64,000 nt of DNA, from assembly GCA_002011115.2 (NCBI GenBank), contig MTME02000068.1:606-64605 (forward strand), given 5' to 3'. Position 1 is the first letter of the stretch, and every line of letters starts with the position of its first letter. The stretch comes from Candidatus Pyrohabitans sp. JdFR-17 (GTDB lineage Archaea; Hydrothermarchaeota; Hydrothermarchaeia; Hydrothermarchaeales; BMS3B). Made by a program: the position numbers and the translations under genes. Below are positions 2,991 to 21,630 of the stretch, one piece after another. The notes under the pieces were generated by a model, which worked only from the letters and a program-made list of their open reading frames with translations, was not told the origin of the DNA and did not search any database.

Positions 2991-3360
2991 GGTGCTCAAG
3001 CTCAAGGCGCAGGGACTGAGCACAAGTGAGATTGCAAAACGCTTGGGCACCACCGTAGCCAACGTCTCAGCCACCGAGAAAAAGGCTAGGGAGAATATAA
3101 GGCGGGCTAAGAACACGCTTCGCCTTGTAAAGATGCTCGAGGCTCCGCTGAGCGTCGTTATTCCGCCTGAGACGGACCTCAACGACGCGGTTCGCGAAAT
3201 CTACAGACGCGCGGATGAGGCGGGTATATGGATATCCCACAGCTTCCCATCGCTGGCGGCGCTGATTCAACAGGGTGCTGGAGAGAAGATTCGTGGACGC
3301 AGGGTGCTTGAAGAGATAGAGGTGGCGATTACCCGCGAGGGTGAGGTCATGGTTATGTAG
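2953..3360 (+). CDS. tfx: Tfx-family DNA-binding protein
   Basis: N-terminal HTH LTERQIEVLKLKAQGLSTSEIAKRLGTTVANVSATEKKARENIRRA with a ~135-aa architecture, as in archaeal Tfx. Overlaps the mobB end. Confidence 0.7.
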   Translation: MTRDTVLTERQIEVLKLKAQGLSTSEIAKRLGTTVANVSATEKKARENIRRAKNTLRLVKMLEAPLSVVIPPETDLNDAVREIYRRADEAGIWISHSFPSLAALIQQGAGEKIRGRRVLEEIEVAITREGEVMVM

Positions 3361-5569: not shown

Positions 5570-6152
5570 GCTTAGCTATGCGGTAATAGCCAACGCCTGC
5601 GCAGCTTCTGCACACTCGCGTGCCGTTTTCGCCAACACTCAACGACTCGGGCACCAGCTCACCGCACCGGGAGCAGCGCACTATGGGGGAGTTCTCAAAT
5701 AGGCTGGTAAGCTCAATCTTCACAGGCATAATTTCCAGATACTCCTCGCTGAGCTTTAGCAGCGCACGGGCGAGCTCCTTCTCCTCTTCCCTTGTGAGCC
5801 TTCCTTCGCGGAGCATCCACTTTTTCATGAGTGCTGAGTGCTTCCACGCGTCGCGGCGCAGAGCCACGCGGTAGCCCTCCATAGTGTCCACCCTGCCTAC
5901 AGTGAGGGCAAGCTTACCGTAGTTTTCGATAAAGGCATTGCCATGTCCCAACGTCGCACCCGTCGCCGCCTGCATCCCATCGGCGAGGCATCGCGCAGTT
6001 TCGCTTATGGCGATAAGCTTCTTGCTCCCTCGCTTAGTGTTGAGCTTCTGAAGAGCTAGGCTAGCCATTCGCACGCCCAGCGCTATTCCCGGAGCGAGGT
6101 GACCGTGCAGCTTCTCAGCCAGCTCAACAATTTCCTCCTCTGTCAGTTCCAT
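5556..6152 (-). CDS. FmdE/FwdE-family protein with C-terminal zinc ribbon
   Basis: HGHLAPGIALGVRM motif plus CSRCGE...CRSC ribbon. Embedded between moeA and modA. Confidence 0.7.
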   Translation of the reverse strand: MELTEEEIVELAEKLHGHLAPGIALGVRMASLALQKLNTKRGSKKLIAISETARCLADGMQAATGATLGHGNAFIENYGKLALTVGRVDTMEGYRVALRRDAWKHSALMKKWMLREGRLTREEEKELARALLKLSEEYLEIMPVKIELTSLFENSPIVRCSRCGELVPESLSVGENGTRVCRSCAGVGYYRIAKHALS

Positions 6153-7502: not shown

Positions 7503-8153
7503 TTATAATTTTTCCCTCTCCAATCTCAACAGCAATTTTTCCACTATTGCCACACCTTCGCCGGTTAGGGAATACTGTCCTGCCTTATTTTTACTCACTA
7601 TCCCTGCGTCGATTAAAACACGAAGGTGAAAGCTCAGCTTTGAGGGGTCATCCATCTCTGTGCTCCTGGCAACCTCAGAAAACCTCCTCGCACCTGCATG
7701 AAGGAGATAGAGAGCTATCTTCTTGCGTATCGGGTTTGAAAGCGCCTTTATTACAGAATCGCTCAGCTTCGCCTCAACTTTGCGTTCAAGCCTCGCCTCT
7801 TCTAAGGTTTTCTTGACTATGCTCACCAGCTCGTCCACATTAAAAGGCTTTACAAGAAAGTCACTCGCTCCGAGCTTCATCGCTTCTACAACATCTGCAA
7901 TGGATGGAAAGGCGCTGATTATTATCACCCTGGTCTCAGGCGAAATCCTCTTTATCTCATCCAGCGCCTCCAAGCCCCGCATGTCCGGTAGCACCAGGTC
8001 AAGGAGCACAAGCTCTGGCTGAGTCTCCGTTAGCTTGCTTATGCCCTCGGTGGCGCTCTCTGCAGTGACCACTCCAAAACCATACCTGCGCAGTGCCTTT
8101 TCCAGCACGCTGGTAGTGTGCCTATCATCATCCACAATAAGTATGGTGCTCAT
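7503..8153 (-). CDS. Response regulator with C-terminal ArsR-like winged helix
   Basis: Receiver motifs (VDDD, LLDLVLPDMRG, LVKPF) plus LSNPIRKKIALYLL...LSFHLRVLIDAGIV. Paralog of 11145..11798. Confidence 0.85.
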   Translation of the reverse strand: MSTILIVDDDRHTTSVLEKALRRYGFGVVTAESATEGISKLTETQPELVLLDLVLPDMRGLEALDEIKRISPETRVIIISAFPSIADVVEAMKLGASDFLVKPFNVDELVSIVKKTLEEARLERKVEAKLSDSVIKALSNPIRKKIALYLLHAGARRFSEVARSTEMDDPSKLSFHLRVLIDAGIVSKNKAGQYSLTGEGVAIVEKLLLRLEREKL

Positions 8154-8422
8154 TTTCCCCTTTCGGTCTTCTCTTTAATTTCATCCAGAATCTGGGCAAT
8201 TGACTTATTCTCTGTTGATATACCCAGATTTTCCGCTATTTCCGTAAACTCCTTTTTATATAGACTTAATTCCCCTGCCAGATCCTTATCCAGTTCTTCC
8301 GCTGCTCTTCGATACTCTGCCACTGCTCTGCCCAAGCTTCTTGCCAAGTCTGGCAGCTTTTCAGGTCCAAAGAAGAGGAGGGCGAGAAGAGCTATAACCC
8401 CGAACTCTCCAGAGCCAATCAT
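8150..8422 (-). CDS. tatA: Twin-arginine translocase subunit TatA/E
   Basis: N-terminal TM followed by [22 protein letters not shown]. Confidence 0.85.
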
Positions 8423-8568
8423 TTCCTGCTACCCTCGTCCTCCATACCACGTTTAAACTCCACCTTGGCTCTACCAAGCGAGCGCGCCAGCTCCGGCAGC
8501 TTATTTGCGCCGAAAAGCAACACAATTAAAGCAAACACTACCAGAAGTTCTGTGTTCCCTACCAGCAT
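8419..8568 (-). CDS. tatA: Second, short TatA/E paralog (49 aa, below the ORF-track cutoff)
   Basis: Manual translation: [53 protein letters not shown] stop/start overlap with the next tatA. Confidence 0.75.
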
Positions 8569-8720
8569 ACCATCACCCGGTATCTACTTTTGAACCACCT
8601 GACCTTAAAACTTTATTTTAAAAGAAATTTTATATAAAGAAGATTTTATATTATAACTATTAATACTAAGTAAAATTTTTACTGGATGTTAGCAAAGCCT
8701 ATAACATTACAAAAGAAAAA

Positions 8721-9713
8721 ATGAGCGGACGGAATAAATTGAGATGGGTGGCACTACCTCTACTGGTTCTATTTGCAGCATGCATATCAGGTGGAAATAG
8801 CAAATATATGCCTGAGGTTGAGTTAGAGAAGCCCCATTACTACTATGACGTGCTGGTGCATAAGGACTACCTGTATGCCACCTCACCCTGGGGTTTAGAC
8901 GTGTTCTCTGTCAATGGCGAAAAGCTGTCCCGCATTGGCGGATTTGAAACACCCGGCGAAGCCCAGACTCTCGCTCTTTCGAGGGATAGACTCTACCTCA
9001 GCGACACCACGGGCAGGCTTTTTGTGTTGAATGTGAGCACACCCTCATTGCCGCGTTTGATTGCCGAGCTAGAGTTAAACAAAACTGCCCAGAAGATTGT
9101 GATTTCGGGAAACAGGGCATATCTAGCGTGTGTCTCTTCAGGGCTGGTAATTCTTGACATTCAGAAACTTAAAGAGGTGGGGTTCTACAAGCCCAAAAAA
9201 TACAGCTACCCGAAGGGAATATTTCTCCAAGGCGAAAGGCTGTACATCGCAGACTTCACGCTAGGTATGTACGTGGTAGAGGTGAGGAACGACTCCCTTA
9301 CACTCTTAACTTCGCAATCCACATCCAGCGTGGCTCATGATGTGCTTGTCTCCAATGGCTATGCCTACGTTGCAAGCTCCGACGGGGGAGTGGACGTATT
9401 TAAAATCTCTGGAAAAGTACCTGTGTGGGTACAGAACCTTCCTCTCCCCGGCTTTGCTCTTCGCCTGGAAAGGTATAGAGATTACCTCCTAGTTACCCTC
9501 GCAAATGAAGGCGTTGCTTTGCTCGAGATACAGAGGGACGGCAGGCTCAAGCTGATTGAACAATACGACACCCCTGGCAACGCGTACGGCATAGCTCTTG
9601 CCAATGGCTACGCATATGTGGCTGACTATGATGGAGGCATAGTGGTGCTCGACCTCTCGCAGCTTCCAGAGCTTGCGCCAGTGGCTTTCGCTATGCCGGA
9701 GGTGAGTCAATGA
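8721..9713 (+). CDS. Secreted lipoprotein, LVIVD-repeat beta-propeller
   Basis: Lipobox LFAAC. About seven LVIVD-like blades: GLDVFSV, RLFVLNV, GLVILDI, GMYVVEV, GVDVFKI, GVALLEI, GIVVLDL. Confidence 0.7.
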   Translation: MSGRNKLRWVALPLLVLFAACISGGNSKYMPEVELEKPHYYYDVLVHKDYLYATSPWGLDVFSVNGEKLSRIGGFETPGEAQTLALSRDRLYLSDTTGRLFVLNVSTPSLPRLIAELELNKTAQKIVISGNRAYLACVSSGLVILDIQKLKEVGFYKPKKYSYPKGIFLQGERLYIADFTLGMYVVEVRNDSLTLLTSQSTSSVAHDVLVSNGYAYVASSDGGVDVFKISGKVPVWVQNLPLPGFALRLERYRDYLLVTLANEGVALLEIQRDGRLKLIEQYDTPGNAYGIALANGYAYVADYDGGIVVLDLSQLPELAPVAFAMPEVSQ

Positions 9714-11167
9714 AAGCAAGTGTGGGTACCAAAATGATGCTCGCCGTAGGCATAATAGTGTTTCTTTCAGTACAGGGCATCTTCTACTACATGAGCGAAA
9801 GCCACGAGAAGAACATAATGGAACAGCTCCACCAGCAGGCAAAGAGCATCGCTGACCAGATTCTCCTGGTAAGGCTTTGGGCGGCGGAGAACAGAGAACG
9901 TGTTACACCAGTACCGGCGGAACTCACCTATGAGCTCTCAGAACTTTCAAATGAAATGTACGACTACAAGATTAAGCTAGTAACCATGAAACCCAGAGAC
10001 CCCGAGAATTACCCATCTGACAACTTCGAGAAATGGGTGATTCAGGAGTTTATGCAGGGGAAGGGCGGAGAAGAGTATGCGATAACTGGCGATTTTTATG
10101 AGTTTGCTGTACCTCTCTATGTAGAAGAGCCCTGCCTCAAATGCCACATTGACCAGGGCTATCGCGAGGGCGATCTGCGCGGTGCACTGGTGATAGAGAT
10201 ACCAGTTAACGAGGTGATGGCATCTCTCGAAAAAACCAGAAAAGAACTTATTATCTATGGGTTTGTGATTTCTCTCGGTATAATGCTGGCTATTCTGGGT
10301 ATTATGAGGATAGTGGTCATAACGCCTCTGAACAAAGTTAAGGAAGCTGCCATAAAGCTGGCGAGACGTGACTATTCCGCCCGCGTTGAAGTGGACAATG
10401 AAGATGAGCTTGGCGAGCTAGCCAAGGTGTTCAACTCTATGGTTGAGGAGTTAAAGAACAAAGAAGCTCAGGTGATTCAAAGTGAAAAGATGGCAACAGT
10501 GGGCAAGCTTGCCGCTGGAATAGCGCATCAGATAAACAACCCTCTCGCTAATATAATACTCTACTCACAGATTCACCGCGAGGATGTAAACGACGAGGAG
10601 ACAAAGAAAGTGCTGGAGATAATTGAAGAAGAGGCTTCCCTCGCCTCTAAGGTTGTGCAAGGACTTCTAGACTTTTCAAGACAGCGCGAATTTAAAAATG
10701 AGACGGTACAGGTTAATGAGGTTATAAGAAAAATGTTAAATATTCTTAAACCACAATTACAATATAAAAACATAAATCTTGAGCTTGACCTCGACAAGAA
10801 CTTGCCAGAGATTAAAGGTGACTCTGCAAAGCTTCTCGACGCCTTCATAAACATCGCCACGAATGCGATAGATGCAATGAAGGAAGGTGGGAAGCTGAGC
10901 ATCCGCACGTATAAAAGCGATGGAAAAGTGGTGGTGGAAATTGCTGACACAGGCGTGGGTATACCAGATGAGCATCTCAGCAAAATATTTGACCCCTTCT
11001 TCACCACAAAGGAGGTGGGCAAGGGTACCGGGCTGGGGTTATATATTACCTATAGTGTAATTGAGAAGCACGATGGCGAGATAGAGGTGAAGAGCAGGGT
11101 TGGAGAAGGTACGACCTTTAAGATCTACTTACCAGGTGAGGTGAATGCAGGAAATACTCATAGTTGA
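9710..11167 (+). CDS. Sensor histidine kinase with periplasmic DUF3365/Tll0287-like heme-c domain
   Basis: TM, then an extracytoplasmic domain with CLKCH and GALVIEIP, then TM and HAMP. H-box AAGIAHQINNPL, N-box NIATNAIDAM, G-boxes DTGVGI and GKGTGLGL. Confidence 0.85.
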   Translation: MKASVGTKMMLAVGIIVFLSVQGIFYYMSESHEKNIMEQLHQQAKSIADQILLVRLWAAENRERVTPVPAELTYELSELSNEMYDYKIKLVTMKPRDPENYPSDNFEKWVIQEFMQGKGGEEYAITGDFYEFAVPLYVEEPCLKCHIDQGYREGDLRGALVIEIPVNEVMASLEKTRKELIIYGFVISLGIMLAILGIMRIVVITPLNKVKEAAIKLARRDYSARVEVDNEDELGELAKVFNSMVEELKNKEAQVIQSEKMATVGKLAAGIAHQINNPLANIILYSQIHREDVNDEETKKVLEIIEEEASLASKVVQGLLDFSRQREFKNETVQVNEVIRKMLNILKPQLQYKNINLELDLDKNLPEIKGDSAKLLDAFINIATNAIDAMKEGGKLSIRTYKSDGKVVVEIADTGVGIPDEHLSKIFDPFFTTKEVGKGTGLGLYITYSVIEKHDGEIEVKSRVGEGTTFKIYLPGEVNAGNTHS

Positions 11168-11798
11168 GGACGACCCCAAACTTAGAGAGGGACTTAGGAT
11201 ACTCTTGGAAAAGAAGGGTTACTCGCCCAAGATCGCCGAGGACGGAGTGAAGGCAATAAACATGATTAAGAAGCAGAAATTTGACCTGGTAATCACTGAT
11301 CTCGTAATGCCGGGCGCTGATGGCATGGAAGTGCTGAGGAGTGTTAAGAAGTACTCCCCCCTCACCAAGGTGATAATAATCACCGCCTTTGGTACTGTAG
11401 ACAGCGCCGTACGCGCCATGAAGATGGGGGCGAGCGACTACATACTAAAACCCTTCAAGGTGGAAGAGATAAGAAATAAGATTCTGCGCCTGCTGGAAGA
11501 GACCCGCATAGAGGAGGAGAGCAGGGAGAGGATAGAGGCGCAGGAACCGGGTAAGGATGTACTCAAGTCTCTCTCAAATCCGATAAGGCGCAGGATAATG
11601 GAATACCTCCACGCCAAAGGTAAGGCGAGGTTTACCGACATAATGAACTACCTAGGCATAGACGAACCTGCCAAGCTCGGTTTCCATCTGCGTGTTCTAA
11701 AGCAATCTGGGCTTATAGCGCAGGATGAGAACCGTCACTACTACATTTCCGAAGCCGGAAAGCGGGCCTTCATGACATTGCTGTCCCTTGAGGGTTAG
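11145..11798 (+). CDS. Response regulator with C-terminal ArsR-like winged helix
   Basis: Receiver plus LSNPIRRRIMEYL...LGFHLRVLKQSGLI. Overlaps the kinase gene end. Confidence 0.85.
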   Translation: MQEILIVEDDPKLREGLRILLEKKGYSPKIAEDGVKAINMIKKQKFDLVITDLVMPGADGMEVLRSVKKYSPLTKVIIITAFGTVDSAVRAMKMGASDYILKPFKVEEIRNKILRLLEETRIEEESRERIEAQEPGKDVLKSLSNPIRRRIMEYLHAKGKARFTDIMNYLGIDEPAKLGFHLRVLKQSGLIAQDENRHYYISEAGKRAFMTLLSLEG

Positions 11799-11966
11799 TT
11801 GTTTAAATAAATTATTAAATTTTGGCAGGATTTTAAATTGGAGTATTTGAATTAGGTGGCTTTATAAAAATTTAATTTAACTAATTCTTGTGGTATAAAC
11901 TATTTTTTAAAAAAAGTTTTATCATTTCAAAATTTAGTGAATATCATTCAGAGCGGAGGTGAAAAT

Positions 11967-14447
11967 ATGGAAATAAGCATGAGCAGGCGTGAGTTCATAA
12001 AAACCTCAGCGGCGACCGCAGCTATGCTTGCCGCTGGTATGAGTGCTCCTGCGATGGCTGCGCAGGGTGATGGGAAGATAAAGTTTGGCCGCGCTCAGTG
12101 CAGATTCTGTGGTACGGGGTGCACAGTGCTCGTAGGTGTGCGCAACGGCAGAGTTGTTGCCGTCAAAGGCGATGCCAATTCACCCATAAACTTCGGCAGG
12201 CTGTGTATGAAGGGTTATTCCCTGCCCCACATAATGTACGGAGGCGGTGGCAAAGAGCGCCTGACCAAGCCAATGGTCAGACAGCCCGATGGTAGTTTCA
12301 AGGAGGTAAGCTGGGACGAAGCTCTGGAGCTGATCGCAGATACCTTTGCAAAGTACATCAAGGAGTACGGCCCGGACAGCGTTGCCTGGTACGGCTCAGG
12401 GCAGAACACCACTCAAGAAGCATACGCTGCTAACAAGCTGTTTAAAGGTATAATTGGCACTGCCAACGTTGAGGGTAATCCCAGGCTGTGTATGGCTTCT
12501 GCGGTAGGAGGGTACCTCAACACCTTTGGCGCAGACGAGCCCGCTGGGAGTTATGACGACATAGACTATGCGGACACCTTCTTCATAATAGGCTCAAACA
12601 TGGCAGAGCAGCATCCAATGCTCTTCCGCAGGGTTATAGACAGGAAGAGCGCATATCCAGACAGGGTGCGCGTTATAGTAGCAGACCCGCGCACAACGCC
12701 AACGGCGAGGTACGCGGACCTTCACCTCAAATTCAAGCCGGGTACAGACATGTACCTGCTGAATGCAATGGCTTATGTTATAATAGAAGAGGATCTGGTC
12801 GACTATGAGCACCTGAAGCACTGCACCTTCAGAGTCGGTCTTGGTCCTGCCGGCGAAGAGGTGGACCTCGACGGATTCAAGGAGTTCCTCAAGGACTACA
12901 CGCCAGAGAAAGTTTCCGACATAACCGGCGTACCCGCCGAGGACATACGCTTAGCTGCGAAGTGGTTCGGACGCAAGGGTTACTCTGCGCTAAGCATGTG
13001 GACCATGGGCTTGAACCAGCGCACTCAGGGTGTAGAGCTTAACTGTCAGGTGCACAACCTGCATCTGCTAACCGGCAAGATAGGTAAGCCCGGTTGCGAT
13101 TCTCTTAGCTTGACAGGGCAGCCTAATGCGTGCGGAGGTACACGCGAACAGGGCGGATTAACTCACATCCTGCCGGGGCATAGAGCAGTTGCCAACGAGA
13201 AACACCGCAAGGAGGTCGCCGAGGTCTGGGGCGTGCCCGTTGAACAGATGCCCAAGAAGCCCACCGGGCCAGCGGTCAACATGTTCATGCGCCTAGAGAA
13301 GGGTGATATCAAGGCAATATGGATAAACACCACCAACCCCGCACATAGCCTGCCCAACTGCGACCGCTATGCGGAGGCGATGCGAAAAGCATTCACTGTG
13401 GTGAGCGACATATACTGGAATAAAACTACTGAAGTTGCGACAGTTGTTCTCCCCAGTGCAATGTGGGTAGAGAAAGAGGGCATAATGGGTCAAACCGATA
13501 GAAGAAGCCAGTTCATACCGAAGCTGGTAGACCCGCCAGGCGAGGCAAAGCCCGACTTCTGGCAGATTAACGAGGTCGCCAGGCGAATAGCAGAGAAGCT
13601 GGGCAGAAAGGTCAAGTATGCTGTCAGGGACAGGAAAGACCCGGTAAAAATCCTGAGCACAATAGAGGTCTACGGTCTTGGATTCTACGATGACCCGAGG
13701 GTTAAGAAAGGGGAGATGACCCCAGAGGAGGCTGCCTGGAACGAGTACAGGGTACTCACAAAGGGTCAGGATGTCGACCTCTATGGTGCCACCTACGAGA
13801 AGCTCAAAGCCCATGCAGGAGGCGTACAATGGCCATGCCCGAGCACAGAGTTTGACAACCGCGGCAGCAACAAGCGCTACATCTCCCGCGATTATGCTAT
13901 AAAGGTCTTCGGTACAGACAAGAAGAGGTATGCCACCGGCTACGTTACGCTCTACGACCAGCACATGGAGGAGCACGGCTATCCGGGACCAATAAACTAC
14001 TATGGTGGGCACAAGCTCAAGAACACAAAGGACAAGGCGGTTATCCGCGCATTAACGCCTCGTATGGACTACGAGATGCCCGACAGCAGCTATCCCTTTG
14101 TGCTCAACACCGGCAGAGTTATAGAACACTGGCACACTGGTACAATGACCATGCGTGTGCGCCTGCTGCGTGAGCTTAATCCAGCGGCCTACGTGGAGAT
14201 TCACCCAGATGATGCAGACAGGTTGGGCGTAAAGAGTGGTGAGAATGTGATGCTTATCTCACCGCGCGGCAGTATCATTCTGCCTGCATGGGTGACGGAG
14301 CGCGCCCAGCCTGGCATGGTGTTCGTGCCCTGGTTCGACGAAAAGAGGCTTATCAACGACCTAACCGTAGACGTGCCCGATAGCTGGTCAAAGGCGAAAG
14401 AGCCTGACTACAAGGTGTGCAAGATTAAGGTGGTCAAAGCCACCTAA
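11967..14447 (+). CDS. napA: Periplasmic nitrate reductase catalytic subunit NapA-like (molybdopterin oxidoreductase)
   Basis: Start moved to the ATG after the GGAGGTGA RBS. Tat signal SRREFIKTSAATAAMLAAG. [4Fe-4S] motif CRFCGTGCTVLVG...GRLCMKGY. Followed by napG/H/D homologs. Confidence 0.8.
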   Translation: MEISMSRREFIKTSAATAAMLAAGMSAPAMAAQGDGKIKFGRAQCRFCGTGCTVLVGVRNGRVVAVKGDANSPINFGRLCMKGYSLPHIMYGGGGKERLTKPMVRQPDGSFKEVSWDEALELIADTFAKYIKEYGPDSVAWYGSGQNTTQEAYAANKLFKGIIGTANVEGNPRLCMASAVGGYLNTFGADEPAGSYDDIDYADTFFIIGSNMAEQHPMLFRRVIDRKSAYPDRVRVIVADPRTTPTARYADLHLKFKPGTDMYLLNAMAYVIIEEDLVDYEHLKHCTFRVGLGPAGEEVDLDGFKEFLKDYTPEKVSDITGVPAEDIRLAAKWFGRKGYSALSMWTMGLNQRTQGVELNCQVHNLHLLTGKIGKPGCDSLSLTGQPNACGGTREQGGLTHILPGHRAVANEKHRKEVAEVWGVPVEQMPKKPTGPAVNMFMRLEKGDIKAIWINTTNPAHSLPNCDRYAEAMRKAFTVVSDIYWNKTTEVATVVLPSAMWVEKEGIMGQTDRRSQFIPKLVDPPGEAKPDFWQINEVARRIAEKLGRKVKYAVRDRKDPVKILSTIEVYGLGFYDDPRVKKGEMTPEEAAWNEYRVLTKGQDVDLYGATYEKLKAHAGGVQWPCPSTEFDNRGSNKRYISRDYAIKVFGTDKKRYATGYVTLYDQHMEEHGYPGPINYYGGHKLKNTKDKAVIRALTPRMDYEMPDSSYPFVLNTGRVIEHWHTGTMTMRVRLLRELNPAAYVEIHPDDADRLGVKSGENVMLISPRGSIILPAWVTERAQPGMVFVPWFDEKRLINDLTVDVPDSWSKAKEPDYKVCKIKVVKAT

Positions 14448-14551
14448 AACCTTATTTATTTTTAAAGCAGGTCTTACTAAATTTTATTTTATAATCAGAT
14501 TTATAAATTATTGGGGCAGTATACTTAAAATAAAAGTTTCTGGTGTTATAT

Positions 14552-14992
14552 ATGCGGCTTGCAATAGTGCTTTTCCTGATAATGCTCATTCTCGCAGGGT
14601 GTGTCGAGAAGGAAGAGACAGTTGTAGCTACAGAGAAAAAACCTTCACCGCCGCTGGCTGAGGAAGCTCCTGAAACCCAGGTTCAGAAAGAAAAAGTTGA
14701 AAAGAAAGCTGGACTGACAATAGCTGATATCCTCAATAACCCGGCGGCATACGAAGGCAAGGAGGTAATACTGCGCGGCAGAGCTACGCCTGGCTTAGCC
14801 TTTGAATTTGTGGATGAGCAGCCATATTTGCTGAGCGATGGTACGGGGGAGATATGGGTGATTACCCGGGCTATGATGCCCATGCAGGGGGCTGAGATAA
14901 CGGTGAGAGGCGAGGTGGTGGTACCCTACCAGATTAAAGGGCGCCACTACGAGGTTGCGCTCATTGAGATTGAAAGGGAGGAAGAGTATTGA
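14552..14992 (+). CDS. Small lipoprotein with OB-fold-like C-terminal domain, function unknown
   Basis: Lipobox LAGC, E/K-rich linker, then YEGKEVILRGRA...ITVRGEVV. Overlaps the napG start. Confidence 0.5.
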   Translation: MRLAIVLFLIMLILAGCVEKEETVVATEKKPSPPLAEEAPETQVQKEKVEKKAGLTIADILNNPAAYEGKEVILRGRATPGLAFEFVDEQPYLLSDGTGEIWVITRAMMPMQGAEITVRGEVVVPYQIKGRHYEVALIEIEREEEY

Positions 14993-15732
14993 GGCTGAGC
15001 AGGAGGAGCTTTATAAGGAGCTCTGCGCTGCTGTGGTTCGGCTTTTTTGGGTTTAAGATGAGAAGAGACGTGCCTGTCATCCGTCCTCCAGGCGCAACGA
15101 GTGATTTTCTTGCACGCTGCATACGCTGCGGTAAGTGCGGCGAAGCCTGCCCCTATGACTCCATAAAGTTTTTTGACATAAGCGCGGGTGCAAACGTGGC
15201 AACCCCCTACATAGACCCCCTTGAGACACCGTGTTATCTCTGCCTCAAGCGCACCAGCGAGGGCAAGGACGAGCCTCTCAGCGACTACCTTCTGTGTGGC
15301 GAAGCTTGCCCCACGGGCGCACTGAAGAAGATTAAGAACGACAGGGATACGCTGCTTTCGCTTCCCGATGAGCTGAAGATGGGTGTTTCTGTGCTAAACC
15401 GCGATATTTGCTTAGCCTGGCAGTACGATTCCTGCGGGGAGTGCTACTACAACTGCCCTCTGCGAGACGACGCCATGCTGGATTACCCGCCAAACGAGGT
15501 TATCACAGGTGCAGTAGGGATTCGCCCCTATGTTAATGAGAAGCACTGCGTGGGCTGCGGAATGTGCAACTACGTGTGCCCCGTGAATGAAAAGATAGCA
15601 AAGGCTACGGTCGAGCCTGGAAGGAAGCTTACATACTTCGAGGAGCGTTACGCTGCCATGGTGAGAAATGTTATAGGCAAAGCAGGACGCGAAGTAAAGC
15701 TTCCAGCTGTACGCGTGGTTAAGAGGGTGTAG
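14989..15732 (+). CDS. napG: NapG-like periplasmic poly-ferredoxin
   Basis: Tat signal SRRSFIR. Clusters CIRCGKCGEACP, CGEACP, CGECYYNCP and CVGCGMCNYVCP. Confidence 0.75.
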   Translation: MRLSRRSFIRSSALLWFGFFGFKMRRDVPVIRPPGATSDFLARCIRCGKCGEACPYDSIKFFDISAGANVATPYIDPLETPCYLCLKRTSEGKDEPLSDYLLCGEACPTGALKKIKNDRDTLLSLPDELKMGVSVLNRDICLAWQYDSCGECYYNCPLRDDAMLDYPPNEVITGAVGIRPYVNEKHCVGCGMCNYVCPVNEKIAKATVEPGRKLTYFEERYAAMVRNVIGKAGREVKLPAVRVVKRV

Positions 15733-15733
15733 C

Positions 15734-16588
15734 ATGAAGGTAAAGGTAATAAGGCGGGTGTTTCAGCTTGCTGTGCTTGCCGTGCTCATCGCTGTGCCTA
15801 TTTACACCCAGAACCCCATAGAGTGGGCACCCTCGCGCATAGCTCTGGGAGAGCTTCCTCCCCCCAGGGTTTCTCAGGTGTGGGGCGACACCTGGAGCTT
15901 CAGCTTCTACGGCATAAACATAACCCATCCCCTTGCCGCTCTGGAAGCGATTCTCGCCGCGAAGGTTATCTACCTCCCGCTTATTATGGCTGCTCTGCTA
16001 CCTATCGCGATAACGCTGCTCCTGGGCAGGGTTTTCTGCTCCTGGCTCTGCCCGGTAGGCTTTCTGCTGGAACTGAATCAGAGGTTTAGGAGCTTTCTCA
16101 GGGCAAGGGGGATAGGGGTAAAGGTAAAACTCAGAGATTACCGCTATCATCTGCTGGGCTTTACGCTAATGCTCACATTCTTCTTTGCCACTCCCATTGT
16201 ATCCGCCTTTGACCCTCCTCATGTGCTCGGAAGGGAGCTCTTTTACCTGTTCACCTATCACAGCGTGAGTCTTGGTGGCATAGCCCTCCTCACTGGAATC
16301 TTTGCCTTTGAGGCTCTTGCCGCCGAGCGGGGATGGTGCCGCTCACTGTGTCCCGCAGGAGGTCTTCTTTCTCTGCTTGGAGCGAAGAGATTGCTCAAAA
16401 TACAGAAAAGGAAGGAGCGCTGCATATTGTGCGGAGAATGCAACCTTGCCTGCCCCTACGACCTTCGCCCTGTAGAGCTGGGCATAGATAAGGATTTTAA
16501 CGATAAAACCTGTGATAACTGTGGGCTGTGCAGAGACGCATGTCCTGCGGGTGCCCTGTACTATACCATTAATACCACAAGGAGGTGA
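15734..16588 (+). CDS. napH: NapH-like membrane iron-sulfur protein
   Basis: Polytopic, with CSWLCP and CRSLCP motifs. C-terminal clusters CILCGECNLACP and CDNCGLCRDACP. Confidence 0.75.
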   Translation: MKVKVIRRVFQLAVLAVLIAVPIYTQNPIEWAPSRIALGELPPPRVSQVWGDTWSFSFYGINITHPLAALEAILAAKVIYLPLIMAALLPIAITLLLGRVFCSWLCPVGFLLELNQRFRSFLRARGIGVKVKLRDYRYHLLGFTLMLTFFFATPIVSAFDPPHVLGRELFYLFTYHSVSLGGIALLTGIFAFEALAAERGWCRSLCPAGGLLSLLGAKRLLKIQKRKERCILCGECNLACPYDLRPVELGIDKDFNDKTCDNCGLCRDACPAGALYYTINTTRR

Positions 16589-16830
16589 AAAAGTTGCCGG
16601 TATCCGGAGCTGTGATTGTGCCTGTGCCGGGCAAGGAGGAGGAGGTTGAAAAGAATCTCAGAGCTCTGCCCGGCGTGGAGGTCAAAGGCAGAGGCGATAA
16701 GGGCATCGCCATTGTAATTGAAGGCGAGTCGACCGCCGAACTGCAGAGGCTGTCTGAGAGAATAGAAAAGTGGCAGAGTGTTGTGGACTTCCAGCTCATA
16801 TACGTGAATGTGGAGGACGAGGTGGAGTGA
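16585..16830 (+). CDS. napD: NapD-like maturation chaperone
   Basis: 81 aa. The pattern VSGAVIVPVP...LPGVEV...GIAIVIEGES...VVDFQLIYVNVEDE matches the NapD fold pattern. Confidence 0.65.
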   Translation: MKKLPVSGAVIVPVPGKEEEVEKNLRALPGVEVKGRGDKGIAIVIEGESTAELQRLSERIEKWQSVVDFQLIYVNVEDEVE

Positions 16831-17921
16831 GCAGGCTGGGATTTGTAGGCACACCCTGTCAGATTCAGGGGCTGCGCAAGCTCCAAGCTCTTGCAGATAA
16901 TCTGGAGCTGGGCTGGGCAAAAAACGTGGGTCTAGCGATTGGTCTCTTCTGCATGGGCAATTGGAGCTACCCCTGCATCAAGGGGTACCTGGAGAAGCAC
17001 GGGATTGAGCTGGAAAAGGTAAATAGGGCCACAATCTCTGGATATGAGGTTGAGATATCGCTTAGCAACGGGAGAGTTGTGCTGCCCCTTACAGGTCTTA
17101 GAAAATACGTCCGCCTTGCCTGCAAGCTATGCCTGGATTTTACCTCAGAGTTGGCGGACGTAAGCGTAGGCAGCATAGGCTCACCTCGTGGCTGGAGCAC
17201 AGTAATTGTGCGCTCAGCGCATGGTGAAGAGCTGGTGAGCAAAGCGGAGGCAGCAGGAGTAATTGAGGTCCGCGAGGTTAACGAGGCACAGCTCAAAAAG
17301 CTTGAAGAAACTGCAAGGAAGAAGATTGAGAGGAACACCAGGAGGATTTTGGGCAGGATTAGGCAGGGCATGAAAATACCTCACTACAGTACGAAAGAGT
17401 TACAGAGCCTGCCCATAGTAAGTGGAAAAGACTTCAAAGAACTCTGGGATGAGATAGTGGTCACTGGTTTGTGCGATGCCTGCGGCGCTTGTAGCGCCGC
17501 GTGTGAGCACATAGAGATGAGGAACGGGCTGCCAAGGTTGAGAAAGCGCTGCCCCACCGGATGTGACAGGTGTTACATCGCATGTACAAGAACAGCACTC
17601 CCAGTTGAAGTACTTGAAAGGAGTTTTAACCTCGGAGGTACTCATGCACCCTACATTGGAAGGTATCGGCGCATACTTGCTGCTCGCGCCACCAGCGAGG
17701 AGCTTCACGCCCGCGCGCAGGATGGTGGCGCGGTAACCGCGCTGATAAAATTTTCTTTAACCGCTGGCATAATAGACGAGGCACTCCTCACCTGCAGAAA
17801 TGAAGAATGGGAGCCCTTCGCAGTCTTTGTAGGAGGCGCTTCGGAGGTTTCAAGGTGCGCTGGTTCTGTGTACGCCGCCTCAAGTCCACTCCCACTGCTG
17901 CGCACACAGAGTTCATATTAA
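16827..17921 (+). CDS. FrhB/FdhB-family (F420-reactive flavo-FeS) protein with permuted domain order: C-domain, Cys cluster, N-domain
   Basis: Probable GTG start, overlapping the napD TGA as GTGA. GFVGTPCQIQGLRKL...ACKLCLDFTSELADVSVGS is FrhB C-domain-like. Cys cluster CDACGACSAACE...CPTGCDRCYIAC. DGGAVTALIKFSLTAGIIDEALL...GSVYAAS is FrhB N-domain-like. Confidence 0.6.
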   Translation: MSRLGFVGTPCQIQGLRKLQALADNLELGWAKNVGLAIGLFCMGNWSYPCIKGYLEKHGIELEKVNRATISGYEVEISLSNGRVVLPLTGLRKYVRLACKLCLDFTSELADVSVGSIGSPRGWSTVIVRSAHGEELVSKAEAAGVIEVREVNEAQLKKLEETARKKIERNTRRILGRIRQGMKIPHYSTKELQSLPIVSGKDFKELWDEIVVTGLCDACGACSAACEHIEMRNGLPRLRKRCPTGCDRCYIACTRTALPVEVLERSFNLGGTHAPYIGRYRRILAARATSEELHARAQDGGAVTALIKFSLTAGIIDEALLTCRNEEWEPFAVFVGGASEVSRCAGSVYAASSPLPLLRTQSSY

Positions 17922-18021
17922 CTTAAACTAAATTAAAATTTAATTTTTAAAATCTCTTTTAAACCTCTTTTTAAAAAAACTTATTTAATATATGAAGGGA
18001 AGGTGATTACCGGGTGAGAAT

Positions 18022-19506
18022 ATGAAAACAAAGTATCTTTTAATTTTTGCAATAGCTGCAGCAATGGTACTTAGCACCGTCAACGCCCAGCAATTTAAAG
18101 AACCAGGTGCACCTTGTCTGAGCTGCCACGATACTGTGACCCCGGGCATAGTGAAGCAGTGGGAGGAGAGCAAGCACAGTAAGGTTGGGGTAAAGTGCTA
18201 CGTATGCCACCTCGCCAAGGATGACGACCCAGCCGGCTTTGAGCACATGGGATACAGGGTTACCGCCGTAGTTTCGCCGCGCTACTGTGAAAGCTGTCAT
18301 CCCAAACAGGTAGCAGAGTTTTCAAAGAGCAAGCACGCTTGGACGGCATTCATAGGACCACTGAAGCCCTGGTACAGAGAGATGGTCAAGCAGGGCAAGG
18401 ACCCGCTGAAACTTGAGACCGCCCTCGAGGTCAATCCTAGGGACTTCATTAAGGACAAGCTTACACCGCTTTATCCGGATAGCGGCGCTCTGAAACGTGC
18501 TGGTCTGCTTGATAGCAAAGACTACTACCACGAGAACCAGGTGCTTGGCTGCCTTGAGTGTCATGGTACCTATGTCATTGCTAAGGACGGCAAGATTCTA
18601 GACGGCTGGCCCAACAATGGTATCGGCAGGGTTAATCCCGACGGCACTATGGGTACCTGCTCGGCCTGTCACACCAGGCACAGGTTCAGCATAGCAGAGG
18701 CGCGCAAACCTGAGACCTGCGGTCAGTGCCATCTCGGCCCAGACCACCCGCAGATAGAGATATACGAGGAGAGCAAGCACGGCAATATCTACGCGAGCAG
18801 CGGAGAGCACTGGAATTGGGATGTGCCACCTGGACAGTGGGGTCCGGAGGATATAGCGGCGCCCACCTGCGCAACCTGCCACATGTCCGGCTTCGGCGGT
18901 GTGGTTGAGAGTACCCACGACGTTGGCGCGAGGCTCTACTGGGAGCTCCAGCCCAAGAAGTCAGTGCCTCAGTGGGACGACCCGAGCTTAGTGCCTCTGG
19001 GCAAGCAGAAGCCTGACGAGGAGCAGGCGAAGAAGGGCAGAGCTGAGATGAAGAAGGTCTGCAGAGTGTGCCACGCCAGCGACTGGGTTGACGGCTACTT
19101 CGAGAGCTTCGACAAGGTGGTGAGCGACTACAACAAGGTCTACGAATACACTGAGAAGCTCCTTAACACCGCATACGAGGAGGGCTTGATAGACAAGTCA
19201 AACCCCATCGACGAAATTCCAGAGATAATGTACTACTACATCTGGCACCACGATGGTCGCAGGTGGAGAATGGGCGCCAGCATGATGGCACCAGACTGGA
19301 CACACTGGAACGGTGCAGTTGACGCGCTATTGGACAAGCTCAACATGATGGAAGAATGGATAAAGATGCAGCGCGAGAAGAAGCAGCTTGAAGAGCGCGT
19401 GGCAAAGCTTGAGCAGAAGAAGGGCGTGTGCGGACCAACAGCGATTGCTGCAATAGCTCTGCTGCCACTCGCTGGCTACGCAGCGCTGAGGAGAAGGAAG
19501 CTCTAA
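18022..19506 (+). CDS. Octaheme cytochrome c, hydroxylamine-oxidoreductase (HAO/epsilon-Hao-like) family, C-terminally anchored
   Basis: Signal peptide and eight CxxCH motifs (CLSCH, CYVCH, CESCH, CLECH, CSACH, CGQCH, CATCH, CRVCH). HLGPDHPQIEIYEESKHG block. C-terminal coiled coil, then CGPTAIAAIALLPLAGYAALRRRKL. Confidence 0.75.
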   Translation: MKTKYLLIFAIAAAMVLSTVNAQQFKEPGAPCLSCHDTVTPGIVKQWEESKHSKVGVKCYVCHLAKDDDPAGFEHMGYRVTAVVSPRYCESCHPKQVAEFSKSKHAWTAFIGPLKPWYREMVKQGKDPLKLETALEVNPRDFIKDKLTPLYPDSGALKRAGLLDSKDYYHENQVLGCLECHGTYVIAKDGKILDGWPNNGIGRVNPDGTMGTCSACHTRHRFSIAEARKPETCGQCHLGPDHPQIEIYEESKHGNIYASSGEHWNWDVPPGQWGPEDIAAPTCATCHMSGFGGVVESTHDVGARLYWELQPKKSVPQWDDPSLVPLGKQKPDEEQAKKGRAEMKKVCRVCHASDWVDGYFESFDKVVSDYNKVYEYTEKLLNTAYEEGLIDKSNPIDEIPEIMYYYIWHHDGRRWRMGASMMAPDWTHWNGAVDALLDKLNMMEEWIKMQREKKQLEERVAKLEQKKGVCGPTAIAAIALLPLAGYAALRRRKL

Positions 19507-19535
19507 GCTTCCTATTCTTTTTCCTTTTTTGAACA
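19507..19535 (+). terminator. T-rich tract after the octaheme gene
   Basis: cttcctattctttttccttttttg immediately after the stop codon. Archaeal terminators are oligo-T tracts. Confidence 0.4.
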
Positions 19536-19582
19536 TGTTCGCACAAAATTATTTTATAAGCTTATGGGAGTTATTTATCACC

Positions 19583-19702
19583 ATGAAGAAGTGTGGAAAC
19601 TGCCAGCGGAGCGAGGAGGAAGTCCCTATCCTCAAGTACTATCACAAAGGCGATAAGCACTACATCTGCTCGCGCTGCCTGCCAATGCTCATCCATGGTT
19701 AG
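19583..19702 (+). CDS. 39-aa zinc-ribbon protein (below the ORF-track cutoff)
   Basis: Manual translation: MKKCGNCQRSEEEVPILKYYHKGDKHYICSRCLPMLIHG (CxxC...CxxC). Ends 6 nt before the next gene. Confidence 0.45.
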   Translation: MKKCGNCQRSEEEVPILKYYHKGDKHYICSRCLPMLIHG

Positions 19703-19708
19703 GGTACC

Positions 19709-20899
19709 ATGATAACACTGATATTGCGCTTTCTTGCAGCTGCGCTTGTGTATTTTAGTCTATCAATATTTCTGGGTATAGCAGAGATTTTTAATTTTTA
19801 CTTATTTGCCCCAGCCCACGTTCACTTTGCCTTTGTGGGCTTTGTTTGCGGTGTTATCATCGCTACAATGTACCAGCAGGTGCCCACACTAACCGGAGCG
19901 GAGCTTCACAACAATCGAGCAGCGAGGGCGAGCTTCTGGCTTTTCAACGCTGGAATAGTGTTATTCTCAGTAAGCTATCCAAAGTTCAGATTCCTCGCAT
20001 CTGCAGGCGCTTTGCTATTGCTCGTCGCCTTCTATCTTTTCACATACAATGTCATAGCAACCATATCCAGCAGGAAGGGCGAGAGCTACGTATTCAAATT
20101 CTACTCCGCCTCGAGTATTTTCCTGAGCATCGCCGCAACGCTGGGATTTCTGTTTACGGTTAACCCATCGCTAATAAGCTATCGCCCCGCCCATGTTCAC
20201 CTCGCTTTAGTGGGCGGTGTGGTACTTATCATCGCGGGCGCAATGTCCTGGATGCTCCCCATGGTTGTGGTTAAGGAGATTTACAACAAACGCTGGATGG
20301 ACTACGTGTTCTATGCTATTGTGGTCGCATCTCTCGGCTTAGCTTTTGGCCTAGCACTTTCCAAAACCATTGCCCTGCTTTCTGGCGTAGCTTTGCTGGC
20401 TGCTGTCCTGCTCTTCATCTACGACATGGTTAAGAGCTACACCGCTCCGACAAAAGCAGCGTTCAAATCCACGCCTGTGGAGGCCAGGTTCTTCCTTGCT
20501 GCCCTAGCCTACCTTGCGCTTACAATGCTGCTTGGCTTAGCTCTGGTGCTGTCTCACCCGGGCAGAGGCTTTGTGATTGCCCATGCCCATCTCGCCGCCC
20601 TTGGTTTTGTGGTTCAGACGGTGATTGGCGGGCTTTACCATGTGATACCCACGCTTGCATGGACGAAGCTCATAGCCCGCGAGAAGGAACGAGCACCCGC
20701 CTCATTTAAAGAACTTTTCTCAGCCAAGCGCTCACGATGGGTTTTTATAGCTTTTAACGTGGGCACCCTCCTCCTCGCCTCTGGATTTGCTTTTGCAATC
20801 AAAGGTGTAACCCTTTTTGGCGCACTTCTTGTTGCCTTCGCATGCATTGCCTTCGCAGCTGAGATGCTGGGTGTAATAAGGAGAGCTGGCGCTATTTGA
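19709..20899 (+). CDS. 12-TM membrane protein with three repeated AHxH helices (NnrS- or heme-copper-oxidase-subunit-I-like?)
   Basis: 396 aa. H37/H39, H162/H164 and H292/H294 sit in AHVHFAFVG, AHVHLALVG and AHAHLAALG, at predicted TM2, TM6 and TM10. Confidence 0.5.
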   Translation: MITLILRFLAAALVYFSLSIFLGIAEIFNFYLFAPAHVHFAFVGFVCGVIIATMYQQVPTLTGAELHNNRAARASFWLFNAGIVLFSVSYPKFRFLASAGALLLLVAFYLFTYNVIATISSRKGESYVFKFYSASSIFLSIAATLGFLFTVNPSLISYRPAHVHLALVGGVVLIIAGAMSWMLPMVVVKEIYNKRWMDYVFYAIVVASLGLAFGLALSKTIALLSGVALLAAVLLFIYDMVKSYTAPTKAAFKSTPVEARFFLAALAYLALTMLLGLALVLSHPGRGFVIAHAHLAALGFVVQTVIGGLYHVIPTLAWTKLIAREKERAPASFKELFSAKRSRWVFIAFNVGTLLLASGFAFAIKGVTLFGALLVAFACIAFAAEMLGVIRRAGAI

Positions 20900-20991
20900 A
20901 CCTGCGGAAGCTAAGCAATTTAATTTTGGTGAGTATGACCTCCGTTTCGCGTAGCGATAGCTCGCCAATCTCCTTAAGATTGATGAGAGGT

Positions 20992-21120
20992 GCGGCGCCC
21001 TCATACGGTTCGGAAGGGGTGATAGGGGTTACCCGGAACAAAGTTCCGGGTGACGAAGTGGGGAAGGCGACCCATCAGGTACGGATGGGTTGATAGGGGC
21101 GGGGAAGGCGCCCCTATATC
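20992..21120 (+). repeat. Structured hairpin repeat, copy A (long unit then short unit)
   Basis: 21011-21068 is near-identical (one G indel) to 54291-54347. 21082-21120 is related to 54248-54286. Each unit is closed by ATAGGGG...CCCCTAT. Confidence 0.7.
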
Positions 21121-21159
21121 TCAAATTTCTTATATCATAAACCCTAATAGATGTAGGAT

Positions 21160-21630
21160 ATGAGAATTAAAAAACCTGCCACAGAGAACGAACGCGTTCT
21201 CGCAACCTTTTTGCTTGTGTTCATAGTTTATTTTGGGCTGGACTCCCTTGCGTCGCTTGTATTTACAGAGGAGAGTCTATCCTTTCTGAGATATCGCCTC
21301 ACCCTCTCTTTTATTATAGGGATAATCGCAGGAGCGCTTTTCTACCTGTGGGCAAAGCCTGAGGAGGAAGAAAAGCCAGAGGAAAAGCCAAAGGTGCTGG
21401 ACAAGAGCTATGCTATACTTGAGCGCGCCCTGAGCGAGGACGAAGCTTTGCTTCTCGAGATAATAAGGGAGAATGAGGGCATAACTCAGGACTCGCTGCG
21501 GTTCCGCACAGGCTTTTCCAAATCAAAGGTCAGCGCTCTCCTGCTCAACCTGGAGAAGAAGGGAATAATTACCAGAGAGAGACTGGGAAGAACATACAAG
21601 GTTTTTATTGCAGACTGGATTAAGAAGTGA
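21160..21630 (+). CDS. Membrane-anchored winged-helix (MarR-like) protein
   Basis: Two N-terminal TM segments, E/K/P linker, then LLEIIRENEGITQDSLRFRTGFSKSKVSALLLNLEKKGIITRE. Confidence 0.6.
   Translation: MRIKKPATENERVLATFLLVFIVYFGLDSLASLVFTEESLSFLRYRLTLSFIIGIIAGALFYLWAKPEEEEKPEEKPKVLDKSYAILERALSEDEALLLEIIRENEGITQDSLRFRTGFSKSKVSALLLNLEKKGIITRERLGRTYKVFIADWIKK

Follow-up and report, generated by a model that had tools for sequence, protein, structure and literature searches.

Nap systems are normally described as quinol-driven, and both the role of NapF and the purpose of the cytoplasm-facing iron-sulfur (Fe-S) clusters in NapH and its relatives NosR and NosH are unresolved. Here, we analyze a window of 64,000 nucleotides from Candidatus Pyrohabitans sp. 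JdFR-17 (contig MTME02000068.1, positions 606 to 64,605; coordinates below count from the first letter of this window), in which a nap gene cluster ends in a gene that we designate permFrhB. The encoded protein belongs to the FrhB/FdhB family of flavo-iron-sulfur proteins, to which the protein that exchanges electrons with coenzyme F420 in methanogens belongs as well, and carries the domains of that family in a circularly permuted order.

The nearest described protein of the same order is the product of MTBMA_c06440 (ADL58239.1/D9PVJ1) from M. marburgensis, where it belongs to the Methanothermobacter cluster; its name in UniProt is 'F420-dependent glutamate synthase'. Proteins of this MTBMA_c06440/MTH193 type were designated FGltS(II)-alpha and recognized as FdhB homologues (Susanti & Mukhopadhyay 2012, PMC3448663). 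The Methanobacteriaceae proteins of this type and permFrhB share the arrangement C-domain, 2x[4Fe-4S] ferredoxin domain and N-domain, a similar length, full-length collinear identity of 30 to 36%, and the same invariant cysteines and QDGGxVT motif. They differ from it in that they are encoded between the GXGXG and flavin mononucleotide (FMN)/Fer4 subunits of a split glutamate synthase rather than with nap genes, fall in a separate clade of a neighbor-joining tree, and lack two cysteines, Cys323 and Cys344, that mark the nap clade. Neither Kaster et al. 2011 (PMC3087415) nor Susanti & Mukhopadhyay 2012 mentions a permutation in proteins of this type, and we found no paper in the library searched that pairs 'circular permutation' with FrhB.

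Among solved structures, the best matches are 8RIU_B (ACDS-zeta) and 8RJA_E (FwdI), both from Ca. Ethanoperedens thermophilum. The former is the zeta subunit of an F420-reducing carbon monoxide dehydrogenase (CODH) and consists of a ferredoxin domain (residues 1-83), an F420-reductase domain (84-349) and a C-terminal tail (PMC11493965). Both proteins have the three modules and the cofactor set predicted for permFrhB, and both are plug-in modules whose ferredoxin domain docks on the Fe-S chain of a partner; however, they show the canonical ferredoxin-N-C order, serve the soluble partners CODH and Fwd, and work in the F420-reducing direction, whereas permFrhB is permuted and has Nap partners. 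FrhB, the beta subunit of the F420-reducing hydrogenase, FpoF/FqoF, the input subunit of F420H2 dehydrogenase, and the N-terminal half of the F420-dependent sulfite reductase Fsr share the same flavin adenine dinucleotide (FAD)/[4Fe-4S] fold, and the ferredoxin domain of permFrhB is equivalent to the C-terminal domain of FrhG and the N-terminal domain of Fsr. In addition, FpoF/FqoF serves a membrane respiratory complex as its F420H2 input module, the kind of function proposed below for permFrhB. All of these proteins have a canonical order, and permFrhB does not reach the NCBIfam cutoff for any of them; moreover, FpoF docks on a complex-I-like proton pump and not on a NapH-type four-helix protein.

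On the Nap side, the closest comparison is NapF, described (PMC5928378, PMC10609526) as a cytoplasmic Fe-S protein that is encoded beside napD in nap operons and is held at the membrane by NapH; some nap clusters lack it. NapF is small, with four [4Fe-4S] CxxCxxCxxxCP motifs and no flavin or F420 domain, whereas permFrhB has two Cys motifs within a FrhB-type protein of 364 amino acids (aa), and the napF model TIGR00402 does not match it. The resemblance between permFrhB and NapF is positional only; they are not homologous as whole proteins.

We found no publication in which an FrhB-type subunit is described for a Nap system, in agreement with the initial annotation of this window, whose author knew of none. 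For these genomes, Carr 2019 (PMC6775978) listed 'NapADGH' and, separately, an F420-reducing hydrogenase beta subunit ('FrhB'), which was read as a hydrogenase and not linked to Nap; the permuted genes now carry the annotation 'F420 hydrogenase subunit beta'. For the nap-linked copy, the hydrogenase reading is probably wrong. A conserved archaeal Nap system with an F420-type subunit in the place of NapF appears to be new, and the permutation itself appears to be undescribed. Because the permutation defines an old subfamily that includes the M. marburgensis protein, the novelty lies in the association with nap and in a permutation that has apparently gone unremarked, not in a unique rearrangement.

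permFrhB encodes an exact circular permutation of a canonical F420-reductase module

The gene and the segments of its product are as follows.

16827..17921, + strand: permFrhB, 364 aa, GTG start at 16827 and TAA stop at 17919-17921; last gene of the nap cluster
16830..17285, + strand: FrhB_FdhB_C domain, aa 2-153 (Pfam E 1.2e-41; 142.5 bits, cutoff 23.3)
17286..17447, + strand: long helix and low-confidence linker, aa 154-207 (helix 153-179 in an AlphaFold2 [AF2] model; predicted local distance difference test [pLDDT] score ~60 at aa 181-200; alignment to the tail and N terminus of 8riu_B)
17448..17612, + strand: ferredoxin-like domain with 8 Cys, aa 208-262 (matches the FrhG C-terminal ferredoxin domain and 8riu_B residues 11-80)
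17676..17891, + strand: FrhB_FdhB_N domain with a QDGGAVT motif, aa 284-355 (Pfam E 9e-16; 58.2 bits, cutoff 22)

The open reading frame (ORF) has the extent and the GTG start given in the initial annotation. The GTGA at 16827-16830 combines the TGA stop of napD with the GTG start of permFrhB in a 4-bp overlap, as had been claimed, and this junction is identical in five nap loci (that of the window and four further, independent ones). In those four loci, the only in-frame start is the GTG of this GTGA, for which reason a longer permFrhB ORF starting from the GTG at 16770 (383 aa) was rejected. A sequence scan of the product reveals no signal peptide and no transmembrane or hydrophobic segment. 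permFrhB is a genuine, expressed-type gene for a cytoplasmic FrhB-family flavo-iron-sulfur protein with FAD, one core [4Fe-4S] cluster and a two-cluster ferredoxin domain as its predicted cofactors.

The initial annotation had proposed the order C-domain, Fe-S block, N-domain and suggested that profile hidden Markov models (HMMs) be used to check it. These models place the C-domain (aa 2-153) before the N-domain (aa 284-355), the reverse of the normal order, with the Cys block between them. Both PF04432 and PF04422 match above their gathering thresholds, while the N-before-C arrangement of the family is absent; it is thus homology and fold, rather than the linear succession of domains, that make permFrhB a member of the FrhB/FdhB family. 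The double Cys cluster, CDACGACSAAC...CPTGCDRCYIAC, occupies aa 216-253, exactly at the claimed nucleotides 17472-17585. Pfam Fer4 models do not match this block in permFrhB, but they do match the equivalent region of a Methanobacterium homologue, and NCBIfam and PDB profiles match the block itself to the FrhG C-terminal ferredoxin domain. Its eight cysteines are consistent with 2x[4Fe-4S]. The C-domain contains a GSxGSPxGWST motif and four cysteines (C11, C42, C99 and C102) that, judging from the alignment, probably ligate the core [4Fe-4S] cluster.

We built a profile (A1) from nine full-length relatives, searched it against the sequences in PDB and also used it as the basis of the AF2 model. 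The best match is 8riu_B (E 1.5e-80), followed by 8RJA_E (E 5.5e-75), and the alignment to 8riu_B comes in two segments of swapped order: profile positions 208-355 correspond to residues 11-161, and positions 3-176 correspond to residues 178-349. Coordinates are swapped in the same way relative to 8rja_E and 3zfs_C. Within this alignment, the N-domain covers 8riu_B residues 84-161 and FrhB residues 3-89, and permFrhB terminates at the point where its canonical relatives run on into VGTPCQ. Since the breakpoint sits in the linker between the N- and C-domains, the canonical ferredoxin-N-C module has undergone an exact circular permutation in permFrhB, as first proposed; a connector of ~30-50 residues joins the ancestral C terminus to the ancestral N terminus.

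The AF2 model (pLDDT 83, predicted TM-score 0.86) loses confidence mainly in this new connector (~aa 181-200, the longest such stretch), with a short dip at aa 96-98. Foldseek matches the model to FrhB, 8RIU_B, 8RJA_E, Fsr, FdhB and HCAR in PDB. Its best alignments (FrhB 4ci0_C, 8RIU_B and 8RJA_E) have a root mean square deviation (rmsd) of 1.6-2.2 Å over ~180 columns that correspond to the C-domain, a length limited by the use of a sequential aligner on a permuted protein. Longer alignments to Fsr have an rmsd of >13 Å and were discarded as meaningless. C11, C42, C99, C102, Q298, G300 and G118 occupy the same columns whether permFrhB is aligned with FrhB or with 8riu_B. The three modules of the FrhB family have now been seen in all three cyclic orders: N-C-Fer (FdhB), Fer-N-C (FpoF, Fsr and zeta) and C-Fer-N (permFrhB).

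permFrhB is part of a conserved archaeal nap cluster

The genes upstream of permFrhB in the cluster are as follows.

11937..14447, + strand: napA, molybdopterin catalytic subunit with a twin-arginine translocation (Tat) signal (Pfam Molybdopterin, Molydop_binding, Fe4S4 and TAT_signal; NCBIfam NapA 670 versus 904 bits)
14543..14992, + strand: hyp149, conserved 149-aa lipobox-like protein (no Pfam or NCBIfam match; conserved position)
14989..15732, + strand: napG, Tat-exported poly-ferredoxin (NCBIfam NapG E 5.9e-33, 114 bits versus a cutoff of 269; RRSFIR Tat motif)
15734..16588, + strand: napH, the proposed docking partner of permFrhB (NCBIfam NapH E 2.4e-39, 135 bits versus a cutoff of 234; Pfam Fer4_5)
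16585..16830, + strand: napD, Tat-signal-binding chaperone of NapA (Pfam NapD E 2.4e-13; no NCBIfam match)

A NapA with a Tat signal thus occurs together with NapG, NapH and NapD, the combination by which we recognize a Nap system; because the best NCBIfam models, NapA, NapG and NapH, are all matched below their equivalog cutoffs, these are divergent archaeal forms. The NapH product has four transmembrane helices, two CX3CP motifs and a C-terminal domain with 2 x CxxCxxCxxxCP. We found no napF, napB or napC in the cluster or its flanks, with only an octaheme HAO-like cytochrome encoded downstream, and napF is likewise absent from the syntenic nap loci examined.

The initial annotation had assigned permFrhB to the nap transcript by virtue of the GTGA overlap. 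Every junction from hyp149 through napG, napH and napD to permFrhB overlaps or abuts, and the arrangement is kept in loci whose proteins are 52-72% identical; the gene belongs to the nap gene cluster. This run is bordered by AT-rich gaps, one of 95 bp upstream of hyp149 and one of 100 bp downstream of permFrhB. The order napA-x-napG-napH-napD-permFrhB is kept in ~7 lineages, four of them titled Hydrothermarchaeota or Methanobacteriota archaeon, and the closest syntenic locus is that of Ca. Pyrohabitans jungbluthii JdFR-16 (locus L001).

Between napA and napG, hyp149 encodes an N-terminal hydrophobic segment that ends in LAGC, followed by a Glu/Lys/Pro-rich spacer without a heme motif, and none of the Hydrothermarchaeota nap loci examined lacks it at this position. 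Its product may be an anchor or partner of NapA in the absence of NapB.

The permuted order defines an old subfamily with several gene contexts

We considered whether the permutation is unique to nap loci and rejected this idea: ~125 Methanobacteriaceae sequences and ~13 other Hydrothermarchaeota sequences have the same order, and permFrhB matches proteins from loci of both groups collinearly over residues ~3-360. A genome scan found the C-Fer-N architecture in Methanobacterium, Methanothermobacter and Methanobrevibacter. The permutation is therefore a trait of an old, fairly widespread subfamily and was not invented at the nap locus. In a library of 1.84 billion representatives at 50% identity, 832 match the family at E <= 1e-30, and among the best 150 of these 832 representatives only ~15 align as one full-length stretch, the remainder having the C-domain in their second half; for this reason, we take the permuted form to be a small minority. 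The nap-linked permFrhB proteins fall in one 50% cluster. In a neighbor-joining tree rooted on canonical sequences re-cut at VGTPCQ, which lacks support values and is indicative only, all permuted proteins form one clade with a Methanobacteriaceae branch and a Hydrothermarchaeota branch, and the nap-linked proteins are monophyletic and sister to the other Hydrothermarchaeota members.

Members from Methanobacteriaceae are nearly always encoded in a cluster of GATase, GXGXG, permFrhB and Glu_synthase-FMN(+2xFer4) genes. The gene in the window lies instead in a nap cluster and has no GATase, GXGXG or Glu_synthase neighbors; it is a member of the subfamily in another functional setting, outside the split glutamate synthase cluster. 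Elsewhere, permuted genes accompany 2-oxoacid oxidoreductases. In one locus (L092), a porGDAB-type 2-oxoacid:ferredoxin oxidoreductase operon, confirmed by Pfam, is preceded by a permFrhB gene that overlaps its start; a permuted gene precedes porGDAB in L094 and L020 too, where the sizes of the genes match those of L092. In a Hydrothermarchaeota metagenome-assembled genome (MAG; L015, 5561-9086), IorA-IorB are followed directly by a permuted FrhB paralogue. These IorAB and porGDAB pairings may represent F420-coupled 2-oxoacid oxidoreductases. One further permFrhB gene overlaps that for Mtd, the F420-dependent methylenetetrahydromethanopterin dehydrogenase.

A second type of NapH context was found in another Hydrothermarchaeota genome (GCA_964534545.1; L004, 7359-14711). 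Here, a tightly packed cluster encodes a C_GCAxxG protein that bears a Tat signal and a C-terminal CxxCH, then a protein of 187 aa, one that is NapH-like, one of 84 aa, permFrhB, an S-layer-like protein and three NosL proteins; an ABC transporter is also encoded. The NapH-like protein has four transmembrane helices, two CX3CP motifs and C-terminal Fe-S motifs, and the 84-aa product is a membrane protein with CTGACPGC. The cluster contains no NapA and no NapD-like gene: the 84-aa gene was tried as a NapD candidate and rejected, with an hhalign probability of 0.15% and no match to Pfam NapD. The locus appears to encode an uncharacterized extracytoplasmic redox or copper system that uses the NapH and permFrhB pair.

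The glutamate synthase, 2-oxoacid oxidoreductase and NapH contexts share a neighbor that exposes a ferredoxin-type di-cluster domain. Members of the permuted subfamily probably act as plug-in modules: by way of FAD and three clusters, each would connect the two-electron carrier F420/F420H2 with a partner enzyme that exposes ferredoxin-type clusters.

permFrhB is conserved and under purifying selection

Full-length collinear relatives of permFrhB from independent assemblies are 72%, 56%, 55% and 52% identical to it, and further ones, from many genomes and metagenomes, are 28-39% identical. Across a set of 147 distinct permuted sequences, the core-cluster cysteines C11, C42, C99 and C102 are invariant (147/147), as are those of the proximal ferredoxin cluster (C216, C219, C222 and C253); the cysteines of the second ferredoxin cluster (C226, C242, C246 and C249) are kept in most sequences. 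The QDGGxVT motif is conserved throughout, with Q298 and G300 invariant, and G118 is invariant as well. Two N-domain cysteines, Cys323 (17793-17795) and Cys344 (17856-17858), occur in every nap-linked protein but in no other permuted member, and may form a clade-specific redox or metal site. Cys50 is common only to the nap-linked and the other Hydrothermarchaeota permuted members.

An unusual domain order could in principle arise if two truncated tandem FrhB copies had been joined by mis-assembly, or if the gene were a functionless pseudogene remnant, and the initial annotation had named the first of these as an outcome that would overturn its claim. The odd order is the sole support for such an explanation. 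The same order, length and junction recur in independent assemblies from different samples and in complete chromosomes from cultured strains of Methanobacterium; altogether, a search for the permuted order, as had been recommended, found it in ~7 nap-linked lineages and ~140 further distinct sequences, verified by translation and, in a complete Methanobacterium chromosome, also by Pfam. The ORFs are intact, the core and proximal ligand cysteines are invariant, the AF2 fold is confident, and the ratio of nonsynonymous to synonymous substitution rates (dN/dS) of permFrhB is 0.17 and 0.19 against the two nearest nap loci, indicating purifying selection. Against this record, chance and mis-assembly are excluded, and we reject both an artefact and a decaying gene.

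Synonymous divergence (dS) from Ca. Pyrohabitans jungbluthii is strongly mosaic over 11937-21630: it is lowest (~0.16-0.2) in hyp149, napG and the COX1-like gene, intermediate (0.55-0.8) in napA, napH, napD and the cytochrome gene, and highest, at 1.24, in permFrhB. This pattern suggests recombination or the replacement of single genes inside the operon.

A proposed role as an F420H2 input module on NapH

We propose, with a confidence that is evenly poised, that permFrhB is an F420H2-oxidizing input module docked on NapH; its cofactors, F420 specificity, docking and direction of electron flow are those that we infer for the module. Cytoplasmic F420H2 would give a hydride to the FAD of permFrhB, and single electrons would then leave the flavin through the core cluster and the ferredoxin domain. 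This domain would dock on, or feed, the cytoplasmic C-terminal 2x[4Fe-4S] domain of NapH, from which electrons would reach the quinone/NapG/NapA chain and nitrate. In such a scheme, permFrhB would stand where bacterial nap operons have NapF, a cytoplasmic poly-ferredoxin.

The Fe-S centers of NapH were reportedly taken as cytoplasmic by Brondijk in 2004. In the operon of the window, the C-terminal 2x[4Fe-4S] domain of NapH is the only Fe-S partner that faces the cytoplasm permanently. In Wolinella, NapH binds or tethers the cytoplasmic NapF, a result of Kern & Simon 2009 as cited in later papers (PMC5928378, PMC10609526). We favor the docking of an F420H2 module on NapH on these two grounds, and we favor NapH over a link specific to NapA because a NapH-like protein is paired with permFrhB in a cluster (L004) that lacks NapA and NapD.

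A reaction with F420 has indirect support from relatives and from the host. The nearest characterized relatives, FrhB, ACDS zeta, FwdI and Fsr, are all F420 reactive, with C-domain identities of 36-39% in the Foldseek alignments of FrhB, zeta and FwdI, and Hydrothermarchaeota encode F420-dependent Mtd and Mer as well as Fqo (Carr 2019, PMC6775978). The ferredoxin-cluster neighbors of the permuted members match a structural precedent from Ca. Ethanoperedens: there, the F420 reductase is anchored to CODH by its ferredoxin domain, and in the Fwd complex FwdI stands in for the polyferredoxin FwdF (PMC11493965). Should the whole chain operate as drawn, the product would be an F420H2:nitrate oxidoreductase, in which a soluble F420H2 dehydrogenase plugs into NapH and a NapH-type four-helix protein wires a cytoplasmic donor to a Tat-exported reductase; we hold this fuller picture to be possible but doubtful.

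Several points weigh against an F420H2 input module on NapH. FrhB-family members such as HCAR use ferredoxin, not F420. We know of no NapH route that moves electrons from cytoplasmic clusters to the outside, and a direct shunt from F420H2 to Nap would bypass the energy-conserving Fqo complex. The link to NapH consists of gene neighborhood in two cluster types from one phylum, and within the window permFrhB is coupled to the gene for the maturation chaperone NapD, not directly to napH. It is also the least conserved gene of the cluster, with 72% protein identity to the JdFR-16 counterpart, compared with 81% for NapD and 90-99% for the other cluster proteins, which would fit an accessory role equally well. 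Finally, even for the glutamate synthase homologue, F420 reactivity 'remains to be proven' (Kaster et al. 2011, PMC3087415).

Some of these points feed the main rival, a NapF-like maturation role, in which permFrhB would work with NapD on NapA (or NapG) before export, would draw on F420H2 as its low-potential reductant for the assembly, reduction or repair of the [4Fe-4S] cluster or the Mo cofactor, and would have no part in steady-state respiration. Its placement directly after napD, with the conserved 4-bp stop/start overlap, is what such a role would predict, and napF, whose cytoplasmic Fe-S product binds NapA and has been implicated in its Fe-S assembly (PMC10609526), is missing from all these nap clusters. 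That NapD and permFrhB should be the least conserved members beside structural subunits at 91-99% is a pattern typical of accessory proteins. Yet other permuted members adjoin catalytic partners, namely glutamate synthase and the 2-oxoacid (porGDAB-type) and indolepyruvate-type oxidoreductases, for which a steady-state role as electron donor or acceptor is natural; the L004 cluster pairs permFrhB with a NapH-like membrane protein where there is no NapA or NapD-like gene to mature; and a full FAD/F420 hydride-to-electron converter would be elaborate for a chaperone. On balance, we judge a maturation role unlikely, though it is the alternative to be taken most seriously.

Less probable still is an electron-transfer subunit that makes no use of F420, whose FrhB-like core would exchange electrons with ferredoxin or, at the flavin site, with another small redox substrate, as in HCAR and BciB, and connect this donor to NapH or NapA. 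The ferredoxin-dependent HCAR (5dqr) is indeed a significant match, but at a profile E value of 3e-11, as against 1e-80 to 1e-65 for F420-reactive members, and with ~24% identity in the aligned C-domain, as against 34-39%. The nap-clade-only C323 and C344 in the N-domain hint at altered chemistry near the flavin domain, whereas QDGGxVT and the other core motifs are retained. The scores of permFrhB below the NCBIfam cutoffs for FrhB and FpoF could be taken to speak for such a subunit too, but they are expected when linear HMMs meet a permuted protein; and the host lineage encodes the F420-dependent Mtd and Mer and the Fqo complex. No F420 biosynthesis or F420-dependent genes were found among the ~40 ORFs scanned in the window; the evidence that the lineage uses F420 comes from Carr 2019.

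Genes flanking the nap cluster

The following features lie on either side of the cluster.

3353-5569: ModABC-type transporter
5556-6152: FmdE-like protein
6162-7385: MoeA
7503-8153, - strand: response regulator
8721-9713: LVIVD-repeat beta-propeller protein
9710-11167: Tll0287-like/HAMP histidine kinase
11145-11798: response regulator with an archaeal DUF7347/ArsR-type helix-turn-helix
18022-19506, + strand: octaheme HAO/HDH-like cytochrome (8 x CxxCH) whose C terminus is a hydrophobic, PGF-CTERM-like tail
19709-20899, + strand: 396-aa COX1/NnrS-like membrane protein

The regulatory block at 7503-11798, upstream of napA, is kept with the nap cluster in related MAGs, and one or two small TatA/B/E genes lie just upstream in the syntenic nap loci. 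Downstream, the genes for the HAO-like cytochrome and the COX1/NnrS-like protein adjoin the nap cluster in JdFR-16 and related MAGs as well, and may form a module that handles nitrite or nitric oxide. In the most divergent nap locus (L009, 3713-14632; JGI 3300037673), a gene for a 514-aa multiheme cytochrome overlaps the napA start, and another multiheme cytochrome and an FlpD(MvhD)-like/Fer4 protein are encoded downstream of permFrhB; the core of napA, x, napG, napH, napD and permFrhB is constant there, while the flanking redox partners vary. Farther along the window, at 58164-60583 on the + strand, genes for IorA/IorB (an indolepyruvate-type oxidoreductase) are followed by one for a PALP enzyme; this is the gene pair behind which the permuted FrhB paralogue of L015 lies.

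Implications for Nap systems and the FrhB family

As the third cyclic arrangement of the FrhB modules, the C-Fer-N order marks a plug-in module that recurs beside glutamate synthase, 2-oxoacid oxidoreductases and NapH-type proteins. The presence in an archaeal nap operon of an F420-type hydride-to-electron converter that replaces NapF leads to a testable idea, namely, that NapH can be fed from the cytoplasm, and permFrhB may show the route by which cytoplasmic electrons enter it. If an F420H2 module is indeed wired to NapH, the cytoplasmic clusters of the NapH/NosR/NosH family would for the first time have a physiological function assigned to them, and the L004 cluster, with its NapH-like protein, permFrhB, Tat-exported C_GCAxxG protein and NosL, would be a second instance of such an export wire.

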